DNA of 30,979 nucleotides from a virus. Lineage: Duplodnaviria > Heunggongvirae > Uroviricota > Caudoviricetes. The notes below the pieces were generated by a model. The model did no database searches, had not been told where the DNA came from, and saw only the letters and a program-made list of their open reading frames with translations. Both the position numbers and the translations under genes were made by a program. The stretch lies in the IMG/VR virus record IMGVR_UViG_644736365_000004; one strand, given 5' to 3'. Shown one piece after another: positions 1,182 through 30,979 of this stretch. How positions within the stretch are numbered: the stretch's first letter is position 1; each line of letters starts with the position of its first letter.

Positions 1182-2237
1182 TTATGTTTTGGTACTCGAC
1201 AGTATTTCTAAGCTGCTGCGGCATTTTAAGGGATTAAGCCGCACAGCGTCTTCAAGGTGGCTTGGGGCGAAATGCGCATACCGCATTGTCATAGTGATAT
1301 CGGCATGGCCGAGGATTTTTTGGAGAACCAGAATGTTGCCGCCGTTCATCATAAAGTGGCTGGCAAATGTATGGCGTAGTACGTGGGTAAGCTGACCTGC
1401 TGGTAGTTCAATGCCAGCACGTTCCAGAGCGGAACGGAAAGCGTTATAGCAGGGCTTTGGAAACAGAGCGCCTTTTGTTTCGGGTAGTTCAGCCAGCAGT
1501 TCATCATCTAACGGAATGGTACGGTTCCTTTTCCCTTTTGTTTTTATGAAGGTGACTTTTCCGCCAGCTATCTGGGAACTTTTGAGTGTTGCCGCTTCAT
1601 TCCATCTTGCGCCAGTCGCCAGACAGATTTTTACGACTAACTCTAAATAACTTACTTTACTGCGTTTGCATTCCAGCAAAAGCCGATCAATTTCCTCAGC
1701 AGTGAGAAATGCCATTTCAGTTTCATCTGTACGGTACTGTCTGACGTTCTCCAGTGGGTTAGGGGCTGACCACTCACCGATCCGTTTCAGTTCATTGAAC
1801 ATAGCCAGAAAATATGCGTGTTCAAGGTTCATTGTTTTAGGTGAAACCTTAGAAACACGGTTAGTACGGGCATAATGCCCTTCAAGCCTTTTTGCACGGT
1901 ATGCTGTAAACAGCTGGGCATTAAACTCAGTGGCCAGCGGAAAACCCATACACTCCGCCGCCCAGGTCATTGCGTCTTTACGCTTTTTACCATTGCGTAG
2001 GGCAACGCCGTGGCGCTCGTACCACATTGTAATCAGGTCGATTAATGTTCGTTTATCTTTCCCTTCACCTAACCACGGCGCACTATCTACCTTTTGAAGC
2101 GTGTGATTCTCAAATGCCAGGGCTTCTCCCTTAGTGGCAAATTTTTTACGTATACGCTTCCCGTTTTTACCATTGCTGCGGTTGACGGTGTAGAAGTCGG
2201 CGATCCATTCGCCAGTAGGAAGTTTACGAACACTCAT
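1182..2237 (-). CDS. int: tyrosine site-specific integrase (P2/186-type)
   Basis: 351-aa ORF. C-terminal catalytic signature ATGARWNE ... HVLRHTFASH ... MTMRYAHF (R, H-x-x-R, Y). Sits next to the repressor at the prophage edge. Confidence 0.9.
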   Translation of the reverse strand: MSVRKLPTGEWIADFYTVNRSNGKNGKRIRKKFATKGEALAFENHTLQKVDSAPWLGEGKDKRTLIDLITMWYERHGVALRNGKKRKDAMTWAAECMGFPLATEFNAQLFTAYRAKRLEGHYARTNRVSKVSPKTMNLEHAYFLAMFNELKRIGEWSAPNPLENVRQYRTDETEMAFLTAEEIDRLLLECKRSKVSYLELVVKICLATGARWNEAATLKSSQIAGGKVTFIKTKGKRNRTIPLDDELLAELPETKGALFPKPCYNAFRSALERAGIELPAGQLTHVLRHTFASHFMMNGGNILVLQKILGHADITMTMRYAHFAPSHLEDAVRLNPLKCRSSLEILSSTKT

Positions 2238-2238
2238 T

Positions 2239-2820
2239 TTATTTAATCGTCAGAACTACGCGGCCAATGATTTTTATGTCGTCGATGCCACAATCAAAAG
2301 CCATGCCCACGCCACTAACTCTTACTTTGCGTACTGGAATTCTTGTCAGTGTACGAATGCTAATTTTTCCTTCTACTTCAACCAGCCAATCGTCGTCATA
2401 AACTTCAGAGTAAGACTGGTCAACGATGTACTGTACAAGACCATCCAAAACGCATAACGGCTGTTGTGGTAGTGATTTACCTGGTAGGAAAGTGACTTTA
2501 TCAAGCATAAGAGTGCCTGAGTCGTAAAGCTGGCCATCAACGATCTTGCTGCGTGGAATTCTGAGAATGTCTAATTCTTCATCATTAAATTTTGGGCCGT
2601 GACCAGTAGCTAGCCATTCCAGGTTAGCGCCTGTTTCAGCAACACATTTAACGACGATATCAGCTGGGAAAACTCCACGTTTATAGCGTGATGATAGAGA
2701 ACTGGCAGCCATGTCCAGATGTTCTGCTAGCTGTAACTTCTGCGTAAATCCGTAAGCCTCGATCACCCGATCCAGAATCGGGGTGCTGTCAACGTTCAGG
2801 TCAATTTTGAATGTGCTCAT
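2239..2820 (-). CDS. CI-type prophage repressor (phage 186 cI-like by size and position)
   Basis: ORF immediately upstream of int on the same strand, divergent from the Apl/CII-like operon. ATG at 2818-2820 (MSTFKIDLN...) gives 193 aa; the track start at 2862 is GTG. Start choice is uncertain. Confidence 0.55.
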   Translation of the reverse strand: MSTFKIDLNVDSTPILDRVIEAYGFTQKLQLAEHLDMAASSLSSRYKRGVFPADIVVKCVAETGANLEWLATGHGPKFNDEELDILRIPRSKIVDGQLYDSGTLMLDKVTFLPGKSLPQQPLCVLDGLVQYIVDQSYSEVYDDDWLVEVEGKISIRTLTRIPVRKVRVSGVGMAFDCGIDDIKIIGRVVLTIK

Positions 2821-2834
2821 AACGAATCCATAAA

Positions 2835-2884
2835 TCTCGATTCGAGAAATTGTGATTGACACTTCTCGAAACGCGAATTAATCT
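2835..2884 (+). promoter_or_regulatory. lysis-lysogeny switch region: operator-like palindrome and rightward promoter
   Basis: Perfect 13-bp palindrome TCTCGATTCGAGA (2835-2847). TTGACA (2856-2861), 17-nt spacer, TAATCT (2879-2884). A TCTCGAA half-site repeats inside the spacer (2864-2870). Lies between the divergent repressor and Apl-like genes. Confidence 0.35.
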
Positions 2885-2955
2885 GGCTCCACATTTCGAA
2901 TGCAGCCTTATATAACCCTGTATTGCCGTACAGGTTAACTTGTGGAGTTTGCCTT

Positions 2956-3177
2956 ATGCGTCCAAACATTACAATCATCATCCCAGAACCATACCTGCCT
3001 CTAGACGAGTATTGCCGCCGTACTGGTACTAACAAAGAAACCGCTAGGAACCTGATCGAATACGGAAAATTACCTATCAAGCCGAAGGGTAAGCAAAAGA
3101 AAGGCCTGGTCGAAGTCAACATGGCCGCGCTTACCATTCAGGCGTTAAGCGAATGTGATATTTCGCTTAACGCGTAA
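2956..3177 (+). CDS. Apl/Cox-like small DNA-binding regulator or excisionase
   Basis: 73-aa ORF from the ATG at 2956, with GGAG 8 nt upstream. Divergent from the repressor, first gene of the rightward early operon. Basic patch GKLPIKPKGKQKKG is typical of Cox/Apl-type proteins. Confidence 0.5.
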   Translation: MRPNITIIIPEPYLPLDEYCRRTGTNKETARNLIEYGKLPIKPKGKQKKGLVEVNMAALTIQALSECDISLNA

Positions 3178-3207: not shown

Positions 3208-3711
3208 ATGTTTGATTACCAGACCTCTAAACATGCTCACTTTGATGCGGCTTGCCGAGCATTTGCAATTGAACACAATCTGGAAGATGTAGCCGCTGCC
3301 GTTGGTATGAGGCCGCAGATTCTGCGTAACAAATTGAATCCAGCACAGCCGCACCGTTTAACCTGTGACGAGCTTTTAGCTATTACGGATTACACCGAAG
3401 ATGCACGTTTACTGGATGGAATGCTGGGGCAGATAAACTGCCTCCCATCCGTACCGGTGAACAATGCCACAGAAGGCAACATGCAGTTGTGTGCACTAAG
3501 TGCCACAGCCTGTGTGGGTGCAATTGCTGGGGAAGCCGTATCAACTGGTCATATGACCGCCGCCCGCCGTACACAAATTCTGGATCGCGCTCGCGATGCC
3601 ATCCGCAGCTTATCCGTGCTGGCTTATACCGTTGAAAGCCGTATCCAGTCTGCGCCCGTTTTGGCCGCAGCGGTGGATCTGGTGACGGCTAATGCGACCG
3701 GCTTGATGTGA
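3208..3711 (+). CDS. CII-like regulatory protein (phage 186 CII family)
   Basis: 167-aa ORF with strong RBS GGGAGAGG. N-terminus MFDYQTSKHAHFDAACRAF...LRNKLNPAQPH resembles 186 CII as I recall it. Position after Apl matches the 186 early operon. Confidence 0.6.
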   Translation: MFDYQTSKHAHFDAACRAFAIEHNLEDVAAAVGMRPQILRNKLNPAQPHRLTCDELLAITDYTEDARLLDGMLGQINCLPSVPVNNATEGNMQLCALSATACVGAIAGEAVSTGHMTAARRTQILDRARDAIRSLSVLAYTVESRIQSAPVLAAAVDLVTANATGLM

Positions 3712-4799: not shown

Positions 4800-5033
4800 A
4801 TGCACATGACACGTCAGGATTTACCCGCAACAAAATCAGGCACTGACCTGCTGGCTATGCTCACCAAAGCCACGCAGGAAGGTAAAGCAGCTGCTGCTGA
4901 TCTGTGTTCCACCCGCCTGGATAAGCTGGCCACCCATGCCGTCAATGAAGGTTTAAGCGCAACAGAAATCGTTGAGTTAATCCGCGAAGAAGCCGCAGCG
5001 ATTTGCAGTAAAGGCGGTGCAGCATGGCAGTAA
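4800..5033 (+). CDS. hypothetical small Ala-rich protein
   Basis: 77-aa ORF with RBS AAGGAAA. Its stop overlaps the dam start (ATGGCAGTAA). Confidence 0.35.
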   Translation: MHMTRQDLPATKSGTDLLAMLTKATQEGKAAAADLCSTRLDKLATHAVNEGLSATEIVELIREEAAAICSKGGAAWQ

Positions 5034-5893
5034 AAACTCCGCTTAAGTGGGTGGGCAGTAAAGCCCGCCTTATGCCGCAGTTGCTTCCCCATCTGCCGGA
5101 GGGCAAGCGCCTTATAGAACCTTTTGCTGGTTCCTGTGCAGTCATGATGAATACGGATTATGACGAGTACCTGATCGCTGATGTGAATCCTGATCTGGTT
5201 AATCTGTATAAGACTATGGCCTATCAGACTGATGCATTGCTCATTGAGCTGGAAGCTTTATTTTCTGCCGGTTCATTAGGCGATGAAGAAAGTCGCGCTG
5301 TTTTCTATTACGCGGTGCGTGATGCCTTCAACCAGTCCGGCAAATCCTTTGGTTCTGAATCTGTGGAAGCTGCTGCGCGTTTTCTTTATCTGAACCGTCA
5401 CTGCTTCAATGGCCTGTGCCGATACAATCGTCGTGGCCAGTTCAATGTTCCGTTTGGTAAGTACAAAAAAACCTACTTTCCTGCTGATGAAATCCGCGCT
5501 TTTGCAGAAAAAGCGAAACGTGCAACGTTCATTACTGCCCACTATTCAGAAACGCTTGATTTGGTAAGGGACGGGCATGACGTTGTTTATTGTGATCCGC
5601 CTTACCTGACTGATACCGACAATTTCACCGCGTACCATGAGCGCGGTTTTTCTCACATGGATCAGGGGCGGCTGGCGCGTAAGCTGCGCCGCCTGGCTGA
5701 GCGTGGGATTAAGGTTGTCGCGTCAAACAGCGATCTGGAAATGGTGCATTACCTGTATGCAGGATTTGACGCTGTGCGGGTAAATGCCCCACGCAGTGTG
5801 GGTGCAGCAGCTGCAAGCCAGAAAGTTGCCGCAGAGCTGATTCTTAAGTCACCTGCAAACCCCGCGATCGGCGTTAGGGCGGTGATGGCATGA
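5024..5893 (+). CDS. dam: DNA adenine (N6) methyltransferase, Dam family
   Basis: 289-aa ORF with AdoMet-binding motif EPFAGS near the N-terminus and catalytic DPPY (VYCDPPYL). N-terminus MAVKTPLKWVGSKARL is typical of Dam-type enzymes. Confidence 0.85.
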   Translation: MAVKTPLKWVGSKARLMPQLLPHLPEGKRLIEPFAGSCAVMMNTDYDEYLIADVNPDLVNLYKTMAYQTDALLIELEALFSAGSLGDEESRAVFYYAVRDAFNQSGKSFGSESVEAAARFLYLNRHCFNGLCRYNRRGQFNVPFGKYKKTYFPADEIRAFAEKAKRATFITAHYSETLDLVRDGHDVVYCDPPYLTDTDNFTAYHERGFSHMDQGRLARKLRRLAERGIKVVASNSDLEMVHYLYAGFDAVRVNAPRSVGAAAASQKVAAELILKSPANPAIGVRAVMA

Positions 5894-6102
5894 TGACGGA
5901 AATTATCACCGGCTTTTATGCCTTGTTTGCCTGTATCACTTTCGCCTTTCTCTTATGGGGCGAATGCCAGGACGAATTTGATCATGATGCTGAGGATTTA
6001 GGGTTAATCACACTGAGCGCGGTTTTCTGGCTACCACTGGTAGCGGCCGTACTTGTGGCCTTTCTGATTGATTTCTGGCGCAAGTGGGTTAACCGTGGTT
6101 GA
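5890..6102 (+). CDS. hypothetical small membrane protein (two predicted TM helices)
   Basis: 70-aa ORF. Start overlaps the dam stop (ATGATGA); its stop lies 1 nt before the replication gene ATG. Two hydrophobic stretches separated by an acidic loop. Confidence 0.4.
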   Translation: MMTEIITGFYALFACITFAFLLWGECQDEFDHDAEDLGLITLSAVFWLPLVAAVLVAFLIDFWRKWVNRG

Positions 6103-6103
6103 T

Positions 6104-8119
6104 ATGCTGGAGCCTGGCCAACACCATGCCGTCAATGCCTGGCGGCGTGAAACCTTTGCGCCTGGTACCCCGTCAGATGCGACGATCACCGAACGCCGCC
6201 TGTGGGCTGTTAACCCACAGGATTATGAATGGCGTTCCCAGTACCTGCATGAGATACCCGACTGGTTAGCCGGGTATTTCGGCAACCGTTACGAAAAGCT
6301 GCTGGCTGGTCGTGACGGGCGTCGCCGTGCCAATACATTCTTGCGCAAAACTATCGGCGAGAATGTATTGCCACGTCTGCGCAAAGTGGCTGCACGTTAC
6401 AAGCTGGCTGCTGATGCACTTGATCTTCCTTTCGGTAAGTCGCTGGAGCGACTGCCGTCACTTGACCGCCCGGACCTCAAAAAATTGGCTGGCCAGATAT
6501 CTGGCTGGATCTCACAGTCACTTTATGACTTCACCGATCAGTTTGTGGGCAGCACTGACGGTGCCGCAGAGCTGCGCCGCCGTACGCTGGAGTCTTACCG
6601 CCATTTATGCACGTGTTCCCTGATGCTGAACAATCAACCGCCGTACTGGGCAGAACATGAAGCTAATGGCGGACAACTGGAAACACGTAAGACTGAATCC
6701 GGGATTCTCCGCATGATGGCACCTGAATGGTGGTATCTGCGTCTTAAGCGGGCGCGGGATATGCAGCGTGAGCATATGGCCATTGCCGTGGGGCAGGTGC
6801 AAAAAGCAGCCAGTGCTTATGTGTCCCGTAAAACCCTGGGTGAATGGATAGACCAGAAAAAGCGGAACCTTGAGTTCTTTAAAAAGTTTGATCTGCTGAA
6901 TGATGAAGGGCTGCGTATTGCACTGGACAGCATGGTGCACCGCAGCGTTGCTAATCCGGCGATCCGTCGCTGTGAGCTAATGGTAAGAATGAGAGGATTT
7001 GAAGATATGGCCAATGAAGAAGGGCTGGCCGGTGAGTTTTACACCATCACCGCGCCATCGCGGTTCCATGCGGTACACAGCAAAGGGGGCTTTGTTTCAC
7101 AGTGGGATGGCTGCACCCCACAGGACACCCAGCGCTATTTATGTGGTGTATGGGCGAAAGCCCGCGCTGCTATTTCCCGTGCAGGTATCCATGTTTTTGG
7201 TTTTCGTGTGGTAGAGCCTCACCACGATGGGACACCGCACTGGCATATGCTGCTTTTTATGCGTCCTGGTGACGTGGATACCGTGCGCGATATTCTTTGC
7301 TATCACGCCAGAATTACCGACTCCGAAGAACTGCAAACGCCAAACGCGCTAAAGGCACGTTTTCATGTTGAAGCCATCGATCCCGCTAAAGGTTCGGCTA
7401 CGGGTTATATCGCCAAATACATATCCAAAAACATTGATGGATTTGCGCTGGATGGTGAGCAGGACGATGAAACAGGGGAAAGTCTGCGGGATATGGCCAA
7501 ATCCGTTTCTGCATGGGCTTCACGCTGGCGCATTCGCCAGTTTCAGCAGATTGGTGGTGCGCCGGTTACAGTCTGGCGTGAGCTGCGCCGGTTACGTGAT
7601 CAGGTACTGACTGACCGCAGAATGGATGCGGTTCTGGCTGCTGCGGATGTTGGGGACTGGGCGGCATATACCCAGGCACAGGGTGGCGCACTGGTTGCCC
7701 GCCGCGATCTGGTTGTTCGTCTGGCTTATGAAATCACTGAGCAGGGTAATGAATACGCAGAGGACGTGCAGCGCGTTCAGGGTGTCTATTCTCCATTGGT
7801 TCCAGATTCGGCGGTATGTACGCGCCTGGTGAAGTGGCAGAAGGTTGCGAAGTTGGCCGAAGCGCCAGCGGAGGCGGGTTTTTCTGGCGGCAACGCCGCC
7901 CCTTGGAGTTCTGTCAATAACTGTACGGAGGGTGGAACCCGCAGACGGTTAAAACTGGAATTGCGCAGCCGGGGTTTTGATGGTTCTGACGATGAAATAG
8001 CCATTCTCATGCGGGGCAGTGGTTTGAGATTTGGCCAGGTGGCATTGATTTACCGTAATGGCCGGTTGCAAGAGACACGAAGCGAGCCAACGCACGAGCT
8101 GTGGCCGGGGTGGTTGTAG
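6104..8119 (+). CDS. rolling-circle replication initiator (P2 gpA / 186 A family)
   Basis: About 671 aa from the ATG at 6104 (track start 6068 is TTG). Metal-binding HxH motif (PHWHMLLF) and tyrosine motif GYIAKYISKN are characteristic of gpA-type initiators. Size and position match. Confidence 0.8.
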   Translation: MLEPGQHHAVNAWRRETFAPGTPSDATITERRLWAVNPQDYEWRSQYLHEIPDWLAGYFGNRYEKLLAGRDGRRRANTFLRKTIGENVLPRLRKVAARYKLAADALDLPFGKSLERLPSLDRPDLKKLAGQISGWISQSLYDFTDQFVGSTDGAAELRRRTLESYRHLCTCSLMLNNQPPYWAEHEANGGQLETRKTESGILRMMAPEWWYLRLKRARDMQREHMAIAVGQVQKAASAYVSRKTLGEWIDQKKRNLEFFKKFDLLNDEGLRIALDSMVHRSVANPAIRRCELMVRMRGFEDMANEEGLAGEFYTITAPSRFHAVHSKGGFVSQWDGCTPQDTQRYLCGVWAKARAAISRAGIHVFGFRVVEPHHDGTPHWHMLLFMRPGDVDTVRDILCYHARITDSEELQTPNALKARFHVEAIDPAKGSATGYIAKYISKNIDGFALDGEQDDETGESLRDMAKSVSAWASRWRIRQFQQIGGAPVTVWRELRRLRDQVLTDRRMDAVLAAADVGDWAAYTQAQGGALVARRDLVVRLAYEITEQGNEYAEDVQRVQGVYSPLVPDSAVCTRLVKWQKVAKLAEAPAEAGFSGGNAAPWSSVNNCTEGGTRRRLKLELRSRGFDGSDDEIAILMRGSGLRFGQVALIYRNGRLQETRSEPTHELWPGWL

Positions 8120-8196
8120 CAGTATAAATCTGTGTAACACGTTCATTTGTCAGTAGATGGCAGGAAAATACATTTCACAATTTGTGCTTTACGGTG

Positions 8197-8216
8197 TACT
8201 GTATGTATATACAGTT
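8197..8216 (+). promoter_or_regulatory. LexA (SOS) box
   Basis: TACTGTATGTATATACAGTT fits the CTGT-N8-ACAG consensus, 23 bp upstream of the 8239 ORF. Confidence 0.6.
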
Positions 8217-8238
8217 ATATATTGTTTGTGGGGGCTAA

Positions 8239-8445
8239 ATGGATCTTTTGGAAGCGTCGGCACAGCTGGAGCGCATTGAGTTATTGGCCAAAATTGCCCA
8301 TGTGTACGAAAGTAACCAGAGAGAAAAAACAATCGCTTTGGCCTGGATTGGTGAGATTGCTGGAGAAATGCGGGAGATGGTCAGAACAGAAGCTAAAAAC
8401 CCCCAGGAAGGGGGCTTATCAGGCGGCGGGAGTCGCTTTCAGTAG
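8239..8445 (+). CDS. putative SOS-inducible antirepressor (Tum-like)
   Basis: 68-aa ORF with G-rich RBS, directly downstream of the LexA box. Position after the replication gene matches tum of phage 186. No direct sequence recognition. Confidence 0.4.
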   Translation: MDLLEASAQLERIELLAKIAHVYESNQREKTIALAWIGEIAGEMREMVRTEAKNPQEGGLSGGGSRFQ

Positions 8446-8688
8446 GTCTAATGCCATTTGGCGCTGATCGGGTGAAAGTGCATTCAGTATTTTCTGCACC
8501 ATCGCATCACCCGTTTTCGCGCTGGGGCTGAGAGTGTGGGAGAACGTCAGATTCATCACAAACGTATGGCCACACTCCACATCTGAACAGGCGCAGTAAA
8601 TATCCGCAATCTGCCGGTGCTTCCGGTTTGTTTTACGAATAACAGCCTTTGAGCCGCATTCCGGGCATTCGATTTTCAGAACTCGCAT
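8419..8688 (-). CDS. Ogr/Delta-family zinc-finger late transcription activator
   Basis: 89 aa from the ATG at 8686-8688 (MRVLKIECPECG...). Cys spacing C-x2-C-x22-C-x4-C matches Ogr/Delta. The track ORF extends to 8742 but those upstream codons overlap the portal stop. Confidence 0.6.
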   Translation of the reverse strand: MRVLKIECPECGSKAVIRKTNRKHRQIADIYCACSDVECGHTFVMNLTFSHTLSPSAKTGDAMVQKILNALSPDQRQMALDLLKATPAA

Positions 8689-8738
8689 ATTCCATGCTCC
8701 AGCTGTTAAATGATGCCTGGATTTTAGCCTTTTTCGCC

Positions 8739-9800
8739 TCATGCCGCATCCTTATCCGTTGATTCTGTGTAACTTAAATCAAAGTTAAGGTGCAGACGTT
8801 CCGGTATTTCGGGATCGTTGTTAACAGCGGTCATAAACCGGCGCTGAATGGGCGCTATCTCACTTTTCTTGTAAATCCTTTCCGCCTTTTCAACATCCCC
8901 CAGACCGGCAGTGTTCTGCGGGACAATTCCTGCCAGCCCAGCGGGAAAGCGGTGCGCGTTGAGAATGTCCTGCGCACTGATGTTTTTGATGTTGGCAAAT
9001 TCATCTTTTGCGGAGATATCCCCCATTTCAATGAACTTGATCGCATCCCCATCCCCGCCAGGAATGTTCACCAGAATGGTGGAGAAGTTGCCGATACCTT
9101 TGCTGTCACGCAGCTGCTGTTCAATTTCTTCTTCCATTTCATCCGTCATGCTGGGATCGCGTGTATAGAGAATGCCGCCAGTATGAGCGCCGTTGTGGTA
9201 GTAGCGGCGGCGGAAAATCACGGCTTCACTGTTAAGCAATGCCGAGTGTACGCCACCGATATAGTCTGGCAGCCCGTAGATATGCTGCTGCGGGTCGTAC
9301 ATCTTGATAAAAATGATATCTTCCTGCGGCCATACCTGCGGTTCACCGTCCTGTAACACCACATAATCGCCGGGCTGGTCTGTGGCGTTGTCCCTGACTT
9401 TACGGCGGCGAATATACAGGCCGGGTAAAGGTTCCAGGGCAATTACATCCCCCCATCCGTTGCGGATTTTGCCAATCGCAATATCCCCGAAGGTTGTATA
9501 GTCAAACGCTGCGGCTTCCAACTGGTCGTAAGTCAGGCCACCGCCCAGGTAATCAGACACAATCATATTTTTCCGGGCGTGGATGATGCCGCCATGCTGA
9601 CCATTCAGATTGATAAGCTGTGCCAGTGCCAGCCGGTCAATCGGCTGGGTAAAGTGATCGGCGGCATTGTCGTACCAGATGTCGCGGTAATCCGTGCCGG
9701 TGGTCAGGACAGGTTCCGGTTTGCCGAATGTGATGATGCTCATTTTTTTGGACTTATCGCCGCGCGGGTTGCGCTTAACGAAGCGGTTTTTTTTACTCAT
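8739..9800 (-). CDS. portal protein (P2 gpQ-like)
   Basis: 353-aa ORF immediately downstream of and overlapping the terminase large subunit. Size and synteny match the P2 Q-P leftward operon. Confidence 0.8.
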   Translation of the reverse strand: MSKKNRFVKRNPRGDKSKKMSIITFGKPEPVLTTGTDYRDIWYDNAADHFTQPIDRLALAQLINLNGQHGGIIHARKNMIVSDYLGGGLTYDQLEAAAFDYTTFGDIAIGKIRNGWGDVIALEPLPGLYIRRRKVRDNATDQPGDYVVLQDGEPQVWPQEDIIFIKMYDPQQHIYGLPDYIGGVHSALLNSEAVIFRRRYYHNGAHTGGILYTRDPSMTDEMEEEIEQQLRDSKGIGNFSTILVNIPGGDGDAIKFIEMGDISAKDEFANIKNISAQDILNAHRFPAGLAGIVPQNTAGLGDVEKAERIYKKSEIAPIQRRFMTAVNNDPEIPERLHLNFDLSYTESTDKDAA

Positions 9801-11572
9801 GCAGCCTCTTTCCTTACACCCCAGCGGGATTTCGGTTTGTTTTCGTAGTTGAGTGGTTCGTTATGCAGGGCGTGGGTAATTGCCCAGAACGCCTCCGCGT
9901 GGCCAGTGTCCTGGCTGCGGTCAGCGACAAATGTCATGGCGTTACCGCTTTGCGTGGTGGTGCGGCGTACAGCCATAAAGCTGGCCGGGATCTCTTTAAG
10001 GTTCTTGTCCCATTCAATACGCTGACTTTCCACCACGTCCGCCGCTTTCAGTACCAGCTGATTTTTTGTGTTCATGTCGTAACGAATGGCGACGGCCACG
10101 CGCATGGCAAAATGCTGGATGTTGTCAAAAACACCCTGGCCAATACCGGTAACGTCCACTCCCAGATAGGTGAAGTTGTATTTTTTAAACAGGAGTTCGA
10201 TCTGCCTGGCCTGATAGCGGAAGTTCATGCCCTTCCAGTTAATGACCTTCAGAACGCGGAATTTCTCTGCGGCATACATCGGCGGGGCAATAATCACAAA
10301 ACACGACAAATCGCCGCTGCGTGCCGGGTCAAAGCCTCCCCATACTGGCCTGTCACCAAATGGCCGCGCAGCGTCCGGGTTGTGATCCTGCCAGGTGTCC
10401 ACCTCCACACCGCAGGCTTCCAGATCTGAAAAGCTGAATACAGAATCCTTGCTGTCCACGAACACGCACATATAGAGCATGTTGAAGGTGGCAGTGTTGT
10501 AGCGGTTGCGCAGCTTCTCGATGTTGGCCAGGTTGAAGCCGCCCGCAATGGCATCCTCCATCGTGATGACATAGCGCCACTGACCGTCCGGGCAAAGCCG
10601 TCCGCCGTTGCGCATTTCATCAAAGGACGGGAACCGGGCGGCCGCGCGTTTTTTGCTGCCCTGTTTCCATTCCTCACCCGTCCAGAACGGGTAAGCCTGG
10701 TGTGTTTTGGCCGATGGTGTTGAAAAGTAGGTGGTGCGCCATTTGTCATGGGTGGCCATTGCGCTGGCCACTTCGTTAAGCCTGGCGAAGTTAGGCACCC
10801 AGAAATATTCGTCACAGTACAGGTGGCCACTGTAGGACTGTGCCGTGTTTTTGTTGGTTGAGAGAAAACGCAGTTCAGCGCCATTGCTGAGGCGGATCGG
10901 GTTGCCGGTCAGCGTGATGCCAAAATACTGCTCTGCAATGTTGACGATGTAAGACCGGAAGTATTCCGCCTGGACTTTGGAGGCTGACAGGAAGATTTGC
11001 GGATCGCCTGTCATGACCGCGTTTTCAAAGGCTTCAAATGCAAAGTACCAGGTGGCACCGATCTGGCGGCTTTTAAGGATGTTCCTGACCTGCTGGCCAA
11101 TATTCCTGCGCAGGTGTTTCTGGTATTCAAAAAGATGTTCATCCGCCCAGGTGTCAAAATCCGCCTGAGTCAGAGAAGAAATATCGTTTTTCCTGTTTTT
11201 GCGTTTGGGGCGCGGTTCATCGCTGTTACTGTCCCGCTCAGCTGCCTGACCGTTACTCTGGCCGCTGGCCATCTTTTCTTTATGCTTATTGCTTTGAGCA
11301 CGCAGCTTTGTGGCGTGGGCAATCAGCATGTCCATTTCTTTCAGGTCGAGATCGGTTTTATTATCGCGGCTGGCCAGCAGCTGGTAGCGGCGTTCGATTG
11401 CCTCCTCTGTACTTTCAAAACTGAGTAAATCAGCCCAGCTGTATTTCTCAGCCCAGTAGTAAACGATCCGCGCATTCGGCAGATTTAATTCTGATGCAAT
11501 TTCTTTTGGCGTATAGCGGCGCAAATAAAGTGCGCGGACAACGCCTTTTAGTTCTTCTGAGTATTTAGCCAT
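9797..11572 (-). CDS. terminase large (ATPase) subunit (P2 gpP-like)
   Basis: 591-aa ORF divergent from the scaffold gene. Contains LKSRQIGATWYFA, a motif I recall from P2-type terminases. Length matches gpP. Confidence 0.85.
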   Translation of the reverse strand: MAKYSEELKGVVRALYLRRYTPKEIASELNLPNARIVYYWAEKYSWADLLSFESTEEAIERRYQLLASRDNKTDLDLKEMDMLIAHATKLRAQSNKHKEKMASGQSNGQAAERDSNSDEPRPKRKNRKNDISSLTQADFDTWADEHLFEYQKHLRRNIGQQVRNILKSRQIGATWYFAFEAFENAVMTGDPQIFLSASKVQAEYFRSYIVNIAEQYFGITLTGNPIRLSNGAELRFLSTNKNTAQSYSGHLYCDEYFWVPNFARLNEVASAMATHDKWRTTYFSTPSAKTHQAYPFWTGEEWKQGSKKRAAARFPSFDEMRNGGRLCPDGQWRYVITMEDAIAGGFNLANIEKLRNRYNTATFNMLYMCVFVDSKDSVFSFSDLEACGVEVDTWQDHNPDAARPFGDRPVWGGFDPARSGDLSCFVIIAPPMYAAEKFRVLKVINWKGMNFRYQARQIELLFKKYNFTYLGVDVTGIGQGVFDNIQHFAMRVAVAIRYDMNTKNQLVLKAADVVESQRIEWDKNLKEIPASFMAVRRTTTQSGNAMTFVADRSQDTGHAEAFWAITHALHNEPLNYENKPKSRWGVRKEAA

Positions 11573-25854: not shown

Positions 25855-26569
25855 AGCGCGTCTGGCTTTTACTGACTCACTGGCCGCGCTGAATTGTTCG
25901 GTCATTCCGGCGCATCCGTGGATAAACGGACTGGGGCAACAGACGGATAACGGCGCATATCTTAGCCCGGTGAATGCCGTCCGTTATCTTGCTGAAAGAC
26001 TGGCCGGAACAGGGGGGAATATCGATGTGATGATCATGATGGTGACTGGTCAGACGCATGAGAATTTTATGACCCGCCTCAACGGTCTGGTCGATGTTTT
26101 CCCGGCACCGGCATTCACGCAGGTAAAACGCCTGGCGCAATCCGCTGCGGCGCTGGCCATCGAAAAAATGCAGATCCCCGCCAAAGCTAGGGCGGGGTTG
26201 CCGGTTGCCATTCCGCTGTCAGTTCCAACCACCAGGGCGGCATTGTCTGCGGCGGCTGTCAGCCAGGCACAGAAAGCAGCCAGTGCGGGATTCAGCCTGG
26301 ACGGATTAAAGCAGCAAATGGGTGAGTTCGCGCAGCTGCGCGACAGCCTGATCAGTGATGTGGCCAGCGGGCTGAATGATTTGCAGGGGAAAAGCGCGAG
26401 GGCATGGGTGTTTACCAGCACCGGCGATACGGCCACCACGCTGCTGGAACTGGTAAAAGATATCCCGCAACCGTCAGCCGTCTATACCGCGGCGGTGATG
26501 CTGGTCGGTGACAATCTGGATGGAATAAAGGGAGTGATTCATGACTTCGATCCCAACGCTGGCGCTTAA
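25844..26569 (+). CDS. hypothetical late-operon protein
   Basis: About 241 aa from the ATG at 25844, overlapping the Tfa stop (ATGTGGCGTGA). GC content matches the phage. No recognisable motif. Confidence 0.4.
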
Positions 26570-27086
26570 TGGTGAAGCTATCCAGCTGAAAAACATGCGT
26601 GTGACCGTATCGCAGCAATTTCAGGATAAAGACCAGTCCGGCCAGACAAGCGCCACAACCAAATCAGAACAGGGGGCAAAAGGGAAAGAGCTGCGTATCA
26701 GTGGTGAAATTCCGTTTAAAAGCCCGGAGATCCTGAAGCGTATTTTTGAACTGGCCAGCGCCACGGATGCCGGAGGCAACCGCCAGAAATACCGCGTGGC
26801 ACATGAAGCGGCCAGAGCCGTGAATTTTCGCGAGGCGACATTCAGTGGAATGCTTGATGCCCCGCAGCAGGACGGGAAAATGGCCTGGCTGGTCACGTTC
26901 ACCCTGACAGAACATATCAGCGTGCAGGAAAAGCGGGAAGCCAGGGCAACAGGTAAAACGTCTGCCAAAAAACAGACGGCCGGTAATGCGGGACAATCTG
27001 GCGGTCAGAGTGCCGGGGAAGATGAAGAAAAACTGACGTGGTTTGAAAAACGGGTGCTGAAACCCGTCAATGATGCTTTGGGTTAA
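26541..27086 (+). CDS. hypothetical late-operon protein
   Basis: 181-aa ORF with strong RBS AAGGGAG. Overlaps the upstream ORF by 29 nt and the downstream ORF by 1 nt (TAATG). Low-complexity basic/Gln-rich C-terminal region. Confidence 0.4.
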   Translation: MTSIPTLALNGEAIQLKNMRVTVSQQFQDKDQSGQTSATTKSEQGAKGKELRISGEIPFKSPEILKRIFELASATDAGGNRQKYRVAHEAARAVNFREATFSGMLDAPQQDGKMAWLVTFTLTEHISVQEKREARATGKTSAKKQTAGNAGQSGGQSAGEDEEKLTWFEKRVLKPVNDALG

Positions 27087-29333: not shown

Positions 29334-29504
29334 CTAACGTTTTTTAGGTGGTGGAGCAATATGTTGGGTTTGTTGGGTCTGGCGTGGTGGTTGGTAGCCA
29401 TTGTTTTGTTGGTCTGGCCTGCTTGTAGGCTGGTAACCTTTTTCTACAGGTTGCCAACCATCGTGGATAGTTCTTGGATTGTTAGCCGGTTTATCTTCAA
29501 CCAT
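29334..29504 (-). CDS. hypothetical small Pro/Gln-rich protein
   Basis: 56 aa from the ATG at 29502-29504, which overlaps the stop of the upstream membrane-protein ORF (AATGGTTGA). Contains repeated G[WY]QP motifs. Low complexity, so coding status is uncertain. Confidence 0.3.
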   Translation of the reverse strand: MVEDKPANNPRTIHDGWQPVEKGYQPTSRPDQQNNGYQPPRQTQQTQHIAPPPKKR

Positions 29505-30135
29505 TTTCTGCCTCACCTTTGTTAGGATTACTATTATGTACTTTAATAAATTCAACACTTTCTATTTCATTAGTCAATATAATTATCCCTAATGTATCGG
29601 TTAGTTCGTGATCGAAATCACTATTGTCATCTAGTGCCCAATGTTTTTCTAGATATATTTGCTCCGGTTCGGGACTACTTGACGCAAATGAAGCACTACC
29701 ATAATAGCCACCATATTTTTTACCATTCTTAAGTGTGACCAGCACCCAGCAGCATTGTCTGGTTGAAAAGAAGTAGTCCCATGAACGCCCAATAGGGTGA
29801 GGTAGGAAACGTTTGACCATTTCACAGTTTCGAATGAATATTAAAAATATAGGTAGTAGTACAGGGATAACTATTAATACACAGAAATAAAATAAATAAT
29901 AAAGGATTGGGTTAGTAAGGAATATATCATTATCTTCAATTAGATATATTGGTATTAATAGAAAAGAATAATTTATACAGCTATAAGAAACTACATCTAT
30001 CAGAATTTTTGAAGTGTCAGAATCCGCAGATGGGTGAAAGAGCCTGTAAACTCTCATGCTAATAAAGCCGGGCATGATGAAAAGCACAAATAACAGTAGT
30101 TTACCCTTTTCTAGTATGTCCATTTTTATATCCAT
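29497..30135 (-). CDS. hypothetical polytopic membrane protein
   Basis: 212-aa ORF in very AT-rich sequence. About three N-terminal TM helices (LLLFVLFIMPGFI, SFLLIPIYLI, LFYFCVLIVIPVLLPIFLIFI) and a ~110-aa soluble C-terminal domain. Confidence 0.5.
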   Translation of the reverse strand: MDIKMDILEKGKLLLFVLFIMPGFISMRVYRLFHPSADSDTSKILIDVVSYSCINYSFLLIPIYLIEDNDIFLTNPILYYLFYFCVLIVIPVLLPIFLIFIRNCEMVKRFLPHPIGRSWDYFFSTRQCCWVLVTLKNGKKYGGYYGSASFASSSPEPEQIYLEKHWALDDNSDFDHELTDTLGIIILTNEIESVEFIKVHNSNPNKGEAENG

Positions 30136-30180
30136 GAAATAAATATTTAAGCCGAATTAATTATAATTCGGCAATTAAAA

Positions 30181-30438
30181 TTAGAAATCTTCAATATCGA
30201 ATGAGTTAATGTCAGCAGGTTTAGCCTGGGGACGTTTACCCACGAGATTTTCTGTTTCTCTGAAAAGGACATCTTCTGCCCCACCTCTTTCGCGGTGAGA
30301 ATCCTCTTTGATGTAAAGACGTTCTTGCTGCATACGAAGAATCGTTCTTTCAATTAGCTCATACAAATCGCATCCTGAGTGATTTAACTCTGTTAATAAT
30401 GCCTTGAGGGCAAGCTCAGTTTGGTATCTGGTAGCCAT
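30181..30438 (-). CDS. hypothetical small soluble protein with acidic C-terminal tail
   Basis: 85 aa from the ATG at 30436-30438 (track start is TTG two codons upstream), with AAGGA upstream. Predicted helical N-terminus; ends ...ADINSFDIEDF. Confidence 0.45.
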   Translation of the reverse strand: MATRYQTELALKALLTELNHSGCDLYELIERTILRMQQERLYIKEDSHRERGGAEDVLFRETENLVGKRPQAKPADINSFDIEDF

Positions 30439-30481
30439 TTGCAAATATCCTTAAGTGAAGGTTAATCTGGCTGCGAAATTG

Positions 30482-30979
30482 CTACAGCTTTCCTTCCGAA
30501 ATCTTGAAGTCCACAACTTCTTTAGTTTTCAGATCAAGCGTGCAAGCATAAGTCATGGTCATTTTGGCATTGAAGCCATTGGTGAATTTGACCTTATCAC
30601 CGATGAAAGTTAACTGGTTCTTTTTGCTATCAATTCGGCCATGTGAAAACATAGGGTCTAACATCCCATCAGTCCATTCAAATTCATATTTTGCCGAACG
30701 CTCAACCAATGGTTTGCATTTGGTCACCGCATCGATCAGGTTCTTATCAAAGTTGCACTGAGTGTCTGTGTTAGAGCATACCTTCGTGGCCTCAGCTGCT
30801 TTATCGTCGTCGCTATTGCCAACGAAGTACATGACTATCCCGACAATAATAATCAGTATCAGACAGCCGCTAAGTTTCTGTTTAGCACCAAAGCCCGGAT
30901 CTTTAACGCCGCAGTGAGGGCAGGTCTTTGCAGAGGTTGATACTTCTTTTTTGCATTCTTTGCATTTAGTGAGTGCCAT
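30482..30979 (-). CDS. hypothetical zinc-ribbon membrane protein
   Basis: 165-aa ORF. N-terminal zinc ribbon C-x2-C-x10-C-x2-C (CKECKKEVSTSAKTCPHCG), one TM helix (LILIIIVGIVMYFVG), and a Cys-containing ~115-aa C-terminal domain. Its ATG is the last 3 nt of the window, so the N-terminus and promoter may be cut off. Confidence 0.5.
   Translation of the reverse strand: MALTKCKECKKEVSTSAKTCPHCGVKDPGFGAKQKLSGCLILIIIVGIVMYFVGNSDDDKAAEATKVCSNTDTQCNFDKNLIDAVTKCKPLVERSAKYEFEWTDGMLDPMFSHGRIDSKKNQLTFIGDKVKFTNGFNAKMTMTYACTLDLKTKEVVDFKISEGKL

Follow-up and report, generated by a model that had tools for sequence, protein, structure and literature searches.

Does the small open reading frame (ORF) that follows the replication gene of this prophage encode the protein that couples induction to DNA damage? 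A LexA box directly upstream of the ORF had raised this possibility, and we examined it in the window, that is, the whole 30,979-base stretch of DNA that was analyzed, and in 94 related loci taken from genomes and viral contigs. On the evidence presented below, the ORF at positions 8239-8445 very probably encodes a stand-alone Tum-type antirepressor, which would be controlled by LexA and would trigger prophage induction through the CI repressor. [quoted passage not shown]

A LexA box overlaps the predicted promoter of a 68-codon open reading frame

The following elements lie at the start of the locus:

8174-8179, plus strand: predicted -35 hexamer TTCACA, identical to the annotated -35 of the 186 p95 promoter
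8197-8202, plus strand: predicted -10 hexamer TACTGT, the left end of the LexA box, assigned by alignment
8197-8216, no strand assigned: LexA (SOS) box TACTGTATGTATATACAGTT
8230-8234, plus strand: Shine-Dalgarno-like GGGGG, 4 nt 5' of the ATG, read from the sequence
8239-8445 (stop included), plus strand: Tum-N-type (TumA-like) antirepressor candidate, 68 aa, ATG start, assigned by homology to PHROG 698
8239-8373, plus strand: conserved core of the tum-like ORF (codons 1-45)

The original prediction had described a near-perfect SOS box located 23 bp before a 68-aa ORF, and both parts of this description proved correct. The box departs from the 20-mer LexA consensus TACTGTATATATATACAGTA at two positions and is the sole match with up to three mismatches in the 30,979-base window, while 0 of 100 dinucleotide-preserving shuffles yielded any match at this threshold. 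It differs from the box of 186 p95 at 2 of 20 positions as well, and it holds a perfect CTGT-N8-ACAG core, of which the window has two copies (0.42 expected). As a near-consensus palindrome with an AT-rich spacer that lies within a promoter, it has the features used to recognize enterobacterial SOS boxes. The ATG starts 23 nt past the last base of the box, with 22 bases in between (8217-8238), and opens a frame of 68 codons.

The predicted promoter closely resembles annotated 186 p95, in which TTCACA (-35) is followed after an 18-nt spacer by TACTGT (-10), where the LexA site starts. In the window the spacer between the same two hexamers is 17 nt, and this layout, with TACTGT within the box, is kept in the enterobacterial relatives. 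In the upstream alignment, most of the related enterobacterial loci keep a TT(C/T)ACA-like -35, and a G-rich run is also kept at the Shine-Dalgarno position. A promoter proposed by a scan at 8147-8174 (TTGTCA-16-TACATT) was rejected as chance-level (1 found, 1.2 expected); it is kept among close relatives only. A search of Rfam with positions 7900-8900 returned no credible RNA family.

The second CTGT-N8-ACAG core (2918-2933) lies inside the perfect palindrome CCTGTATTGCCGTACAGG (2917-2934; 6-bp arms and a 6-bp spacer), with a pR-like promoter (TTGACA, 2855-2860) on one side and the apl start codon (ATG, 2957) on the other. We did not count it as a second LexA site, because its spacer is rich in GC and it lies in the pR/pL-apl region. 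Exact copies of this palindrome occur in 18 of the 98 fetched loci, some of them with a CI N-domain that is only 59-63% identical, and it may alternatively be an Apl or pL element.

The box is retained across enterobacterial genera and beyond alignable flanks

A CTG-N10-CAG box is found 14-28 nt 5' of the start codon in about 90 of 95 related loci, and 41 nt away in Fels-2. The loci that bear it come from Citrobacter, Escherichia, Salmonella, Enterobacter, Klebsiella, Kluyvera, Pectobacterium, Yersinia, Xenorhabdus and Photorhabdus. The box persists from near-identical copies in Citrobacter and Escherichia to homologues in Yersinia, Xenorhabdus and Photorhabdus that are 35-45% identical and whose flanks cannot be aligned. 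When all matches to TACTG-N10-CAG were collected in 1.39 Mb of related loci, 128 out of 191 fell within 60 nt before a tum-like start. In some copies of the Salmonella/E. coli type, the right half of the box reads CCAG rather than ACAG, which still preserves the CAG seen in many genuine SOS boxes of E. coli.

Two loci have damaged boxes. In the viral contig L033, an insertion at 6677-7897 with an ISL3-like transposase gene (406 aa) falls exactly in the LexA box and promoter and has deleted the left half-site and the -35; the tum-like gene follows at 8001-8207 of that contig. Judged from this arrangement, the insertion would have naturally uncoupled the antirepressor from the SOS response. In locus L091, only the right half-site of the box is left.

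The open reading frame is a real gene with a constrained core

To compare selection along the ORF we used 32 distinct alleles of 68 codons. The ratio pN/pS is 0.16 over codons 1-45, 0.75 over codons 46-59 and 1.0 over codons 60-68. Codons 1-45 are therefore under purifying selection. This pattern indicates that the gene is real and that its functional portion coincides exactly with the stretch alignable to Tum (see below).

Because the ORF is short and overlaps a convergent gene, and because the annotation pipeline missed it in several E. coli genomes, one could argue that it is not a real gene, or that the box is a chance palindrome. This reading is effectively refuted by the shuffled sequences, the near-fixed distance between box and start codon across about 90 loci, the low pN/pS of the core, a match to PHROG 698 at 2.8e-24 and the existence of 108 related protein clusters in public data, all of them unnamed or 'hypothetical'. 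In Citrobacter freundii, an identical protein is on record for at least 1000 contigs. The region is carried by 25 of 5426 complete E. coli genomes, and in several of these the ORF was left unannotated: in the homologous region of NZ_CP046006, NZ_CP087564, NZ_CP182145 and NZ_AP045820, only the genes for the Ogr/Delta-like protein and the replication endonuclease are listed. An overlapping ORF of 106 aa in another frame (8147-8467) had no family match and was dropped.

The conserved core is homologous to the antirepressor half of Tum

Scans of the 68-aa ORF against Pfam (E <= 0.01) and NCBIfam returned no family. Besides PHROG 698, the ORF matches PHROGs 8554 (2.5e-10) and 1993 (2e-3), and all three are listed as 'unknown function'. 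The same three groups connect it to proteins of the Tum family. Residues 1-61 of 186 Tum match PHROG 1993 at 1e-22, 8554 at 1.4e-11 and 698 at 2.4e-5; STM2728, the upstream one of the two separate tum halves in Fels-2, is a core member of PHROG 698 (6e-38); and the 'tum protein' of a Yersinia phage matches 8554 at 2.7e-28 and 698 at 1.2e-9.

Direct comparisons point in the same direction. In BLASTP alignments, residues 4-41 of the ORF are 34% identical to residues 5-42 of 186 Tum (38 residues), and residues 2-54 are 32% identical to STM2728; identity to E. coli HS ECHS_RS04495 is 30%. Identity to characterized Tum proteins is thus only 30-34% and is confined to a core of about 40-50 residues. 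When 20 members of the window subfamily were aligned with 15 members of the 186 subfamily using hhalign, the match had a probability of 89.6% and an E-value of 1.9e-6 over 37 columns, and tied the first 45 residues of the ORF to the N-terminal antirepressor half of 186 Tum. The two share the motif ER[IV][ED]..A[KR]........[RK][ED][KR]..AL..I.E[IL]A. A profile search of 1.84 billion representative proteins recovered 62 relatives, nearly all of 45-110 aa. The 146-aa Tum was not among the hits at E <= 1e-3, so that the link to 186 Tum rests on the PHROG profiles and hhalign.

The AlphaFold model of the ORF is a two-helix hairpin (H3-21 and H27-53; mean pLDDT 83, about 90 in the helices) with a tail, codons 54-68, that is predicted to be disordered. 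Foldseek found no match to the hairpin in the PDB at E <= 0.001, only generic helical hairpins, and when the family profile was searched against PDB sequences, the hits were noise alone (E >= 0.065).

Such a generic fold without significant structural neighbours could also belong to a different kind of small SOS-induced protein directed at the host, for example a toxin, a division inhibitor or a modulator of RecA, and the resemblance to Tum would then be incidental. LexA regulons commonly include small toxic peptides, and the ORF belongs to no Pfam or NCBIfam family and has no solved structure. We consider this explanation very improbable, because the homology to the N-terminal part of Tum is recovered through three PHROGs and hhalign, and because the gene has the exact synteny of tum, after gene A and nearly always together with a 186-type CI. 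Moreover, the product does not match DinI and is predicted to be soluble and helical, with no visible hydrophobic segment in its sequence.

The prophage carries a 186-type repressor without a self-cleavage domain

Pfam and PHROG scans identify the window as a 186-like prophage of the P2 family. Its genes around the locus are:

1182-2237, minus strand: integrase
2239-2862, minus strand: 186-type CI repressor (Pfam Phage_CI_repr 8.8e-23, Phage_CI_C 1.6e-31)
2923-3177, plus strand: Cox/Apl-like excisionase
3208-3711, plus strand: CII (CP76)
5024-5893, plus strand: Dam methylase
6068-8119, plus strand: replication protein A, a rolling-circle nickase (Pfam Phage_GPA 4.1e-103), directly upstream of the box
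8419-8742, minus strand: Ogr/Delta-like zinc-finger late-gene activator (Pfam Ogr_Delta 9.1e-20; PHROG 603, transcriptional regulator)
8739-9800, minus strand: portal
9797-11572, minus strand: likely terminase, from its position and the annotation of a related phage

The gene A homologue ends at 8119, just upstream of the box, in agreement with the proposal that the ORF occupies the place of 186 tum after the replication gene. CI of the window is 47% identical to 186 CI and has no match to Peptidase_S24 at E <= 0.01 in Pfam. Together with the homology to the N-terminal half of Tum, this supports the original prediction that induction would proceed through an antirepressor rather than through cleavage of the repressor. 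A 186-type CI is present in every related locus that reaches far enough upstream, with the exception of L013 and L076.

Among deposited phages, a Salmonella phage fragment (83% nucleotide identity) and Quadragintavirus phages (72%) come closest; there the ORF is annotated as a 'hypothetical protein'. A search of the window for the P2 cos consensus gave no match. The tail and baseplate region has an HP1 ORF34-like baseplate protein (26541-27086), which implies that morphogenesis does not follow the P2 pattern alone. The far end (29497-30979) holds genes for a DUF6338 protein (29497-30135, minus strand) and a zinc-ribbon protein (30482-30979, minus strand), which look like cargo or flanking genes.

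Relation to known Tum systems and the missing DinI-like part

In phage 186, Tum is a LexA-controlled antirepressor that binds CI; its antirepressor activity resides in the N-terminal half, and its second half is DinI-like (PMC3121763). Binding of Tum to CI prevents the repressor from binding its operators (Shearwin et al. 1998, as cited in PMC3121763). Fels-2 and PSP3 encode the two parts of Tum in separate genes, and the upstream gene is the one with antirepressor activity (PMC3121763). In the E. coli HS prophage DuoHS, the replication endonuclease gene is followed by ECHS_RS04495, a 62-aa 'hypothetical protein', and by a DinI-like protein. In-frame deletion of ECHS_RS04495, named tum in the supplement of the same study, abolished induction of DuoHS by mitomycin C, as did lexA(Ind-) (PMC12055606 and supplement). 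Since ECHS_RS04495 differs from STM2728, the core member of PHROG 698, by a few residues, this experiment provides direct genetic evidence for the role in a near-copy of STM2728.

The locus in the window shares with 186 Tum (146 aa, p95) a LexA box placed over the -10 of a TTCACA/TACTGT promoter, a position directly after replication gene A, a partner CI of the 186 type without a self-cleavage domain, and a homologous N-terminal core of about 40 residues. Unlike 186 Tum, which matches the DinI-like domain (PF06183) at 1.8e-17, the ORF has no such C-terminal domain, and no orf97 follows; the SOS unit consists of one gene, which faces the convergent Ogr/Delta-like gene. Searches with tblastn using two DinI-like queries found nothing in the whole window, and both the DinI-like part and orf97 are absent from the window and from the region downstream in the related loci of this clade.

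The ORF also resembles PSP3 TumA, Fels-2 STM2728 and DuoHS tum, which are likewise stand-alone genes of 60-70 aa in PHROG 698, with an upstream LexA box and a position after gene A. In these three, however, a separate DinI-like gene (TumB) directly follows, whereas the window has none. A stand-alone tum without adjoining DinI-like gene is also found in the Yersinia P2-like phage vB_YenM_06.16-2 (60 aa, PHROG 8554). Its LexA box lies 28 nt upstream, and its product is 39% identical to the ORF over 44 residues; in contrast to the window, its best PHROG is a different one, and small genes rather than a convergent Ogr-like gene precede the portal gene. The control logic is further shared with Gifsy GfoA and GftA and with N15 AntC, in which a small LexA-repressed antirepressor binds and inactivates a non-cleavable repressor (PMC3121763). 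These proteins belong to unrelated phage groups and act on other repressor families, and the likeness described here is one of control.

The absence of a DinI-like partner is also one argument for a different view, in which the ORF is a LexA-controlled homologue of the Tum N-terminal part without being the inducer. It would then be a weakened or modulatory remnant, for instance one that tunes the induction threshold, and the prophage would be induced by another factor or would not be inducible at all. Several Tum-derived products of 186 only modulate induction (NC_001317 annotation), CI and tum-like genes have been shuffled among the relatives, and some prophages with Tum, among them BTP5, express tum without yielding detectable phage (PMC7067206). 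The modulatory products of 186 are, however, C-terminal DinI-like parts and not N-terminal ones (NC_001317 annotation; PMC3121763). The strong purifying selection on the core and the retention of the box across many genera argue for a maintained function, and we saw no other antirepressor candidate or LexA box in the window. A remnant of this kind thus seems quite unlikely, and the Tum-type inducer is retained as the favoured reading. The induction behaviour may nevertheless differ from that of 186, if the DinI-like part is needed for proper kinetics.

The gene converges on an Ogr/Delta-like activator

The last 27 nt of the tum-like ORF overlap the Ogr/Delta-like gene, and this convergent neighbour is also present in most related loci. 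A further element lies within the ORF:

8400-8413, minus strand: intrinsic terminator hairpin of the Ogr/Delta-like gene, found by a terminator scan, inside codons 54-59 of the tum-like ORF

As RNA of the minus strand, this hairpin has a predicted energy of -16.1 kcal/mol (z -3.06) and is followed by UUUUU. Its plus-strand version is no better than shuffles, and no convincing terminator of the tum-like gene was found. The tail of the ORF combines a pN/pS near 1 with lowered synonymous divergence. This low synonymous change without constraint on the protein is probably due to the overlapping 3' end of the neighbouring gene and its terminator. Without a terminator of its own, the tum-like transcript may read antisense into the Ogr-like gene.

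The Ogr/Delta-like activator lies directly downstream of the portal gene, beside the replication and SOS region; in P2 and 186, the activator of this type is near the tail genes and attP. As the Ogr_Delta Pfam domain begins at residue 25, the true start of this gene may be the ATG at 8688 (MRVLKIECPECG...).

CI and tum-like genes have been exchanged among relatives

Tum-like ORFs that are 100% identical occur beside CI proteins that are 65-76% identical to that of the window, in both CI domains, while near-identical CI proteins are accompanied by ORFs that are 73-78% identical. The gene and CI have been recombined among relatives, and strict one-to-one pairing between Tum and CI is not evident from the association of identical ORFs with such divergent repressors. 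An analysis of co-variation between CI and Tum, aimed at locating the target domain, revealed no domain-specific pattern.

The loci L018-L025, in which the tum-like protein is 100% identical, have integrases that are 56-100% and CIs that are 65-100% identical to those of the window. These comparisons show that the immunity and integration region is exchanged in a modular fashion, independently of the region for replication, SOS response and packaging.

A speculative extension, to which we assign some chance but consider rather doubtful as a whole, is that the 45-residue core acts as a broad antirepressor of 186-type CIs and that SOS-induced read-through, antisense to the neighbouring gene, delays late transcription. 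A broad antirepressor would recognize a conserved feature of 186-type CIs instead of one immunity type. A single copy, once switched on by the SOS response, could then also induce co-resident 186-like prophages with another immunity, and cross-induction of this kind is a property of the Gifsy antirepressors. Read-through, if it occurs, would produce antisense RNA to the Ogr/Delta-like late activator, which might delay late transcription.

Proposed mechanism of induction

The box, the promoter layout, the coding status, homology and synteny of the ORF and the type of CI can all be read directly from the DNA. For LexA binding, binding of the Tum-type protein to CI and induction itself, we infer the behaviour of the locus from 186 and DuoHS.

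In the lysogen, host LexA bound at 8197-8216 would cover the -10 and the predicted transcription start (near 8209), and because of this position the gene would be kept off. Upon DNA damage, activated RecA would promote self-cleavage of LexA and the promoter would open. The small two-helix protein would then accumulate and bind the 186-type CI (2239-2862), which has no recognizable self-cleavage domain. Loss of CI from its operators by titration would open pR, the early lytic promoter, and the prophage would be induced, with Apl and the early operon driving excision and replication after the de-repression of pR.

Implications for P2-family prophages

The SOS induction pathway of the 186 type is already known; what is new is an unannotated member of it in this prophage. 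The biology is that of the textbook 186 pathway in a relative and as such holds little surprise. The gain lies in annotation, since the subfamily is a 'hypothetical protein' in every database copy that we saw and is not even called in some complete E. coli genomes, and PHROGs 698, 8554 and 1993, still of 'unknown function', correspond to the Tum antirepressor module. Recognition of this module would make it possible to predict inducibility by DNA damage, including damage caused by antibiotics, for individual P2-family prophages of Citrobacter, Escherichia, Salmonella, Enterobacter and Klebsiella.
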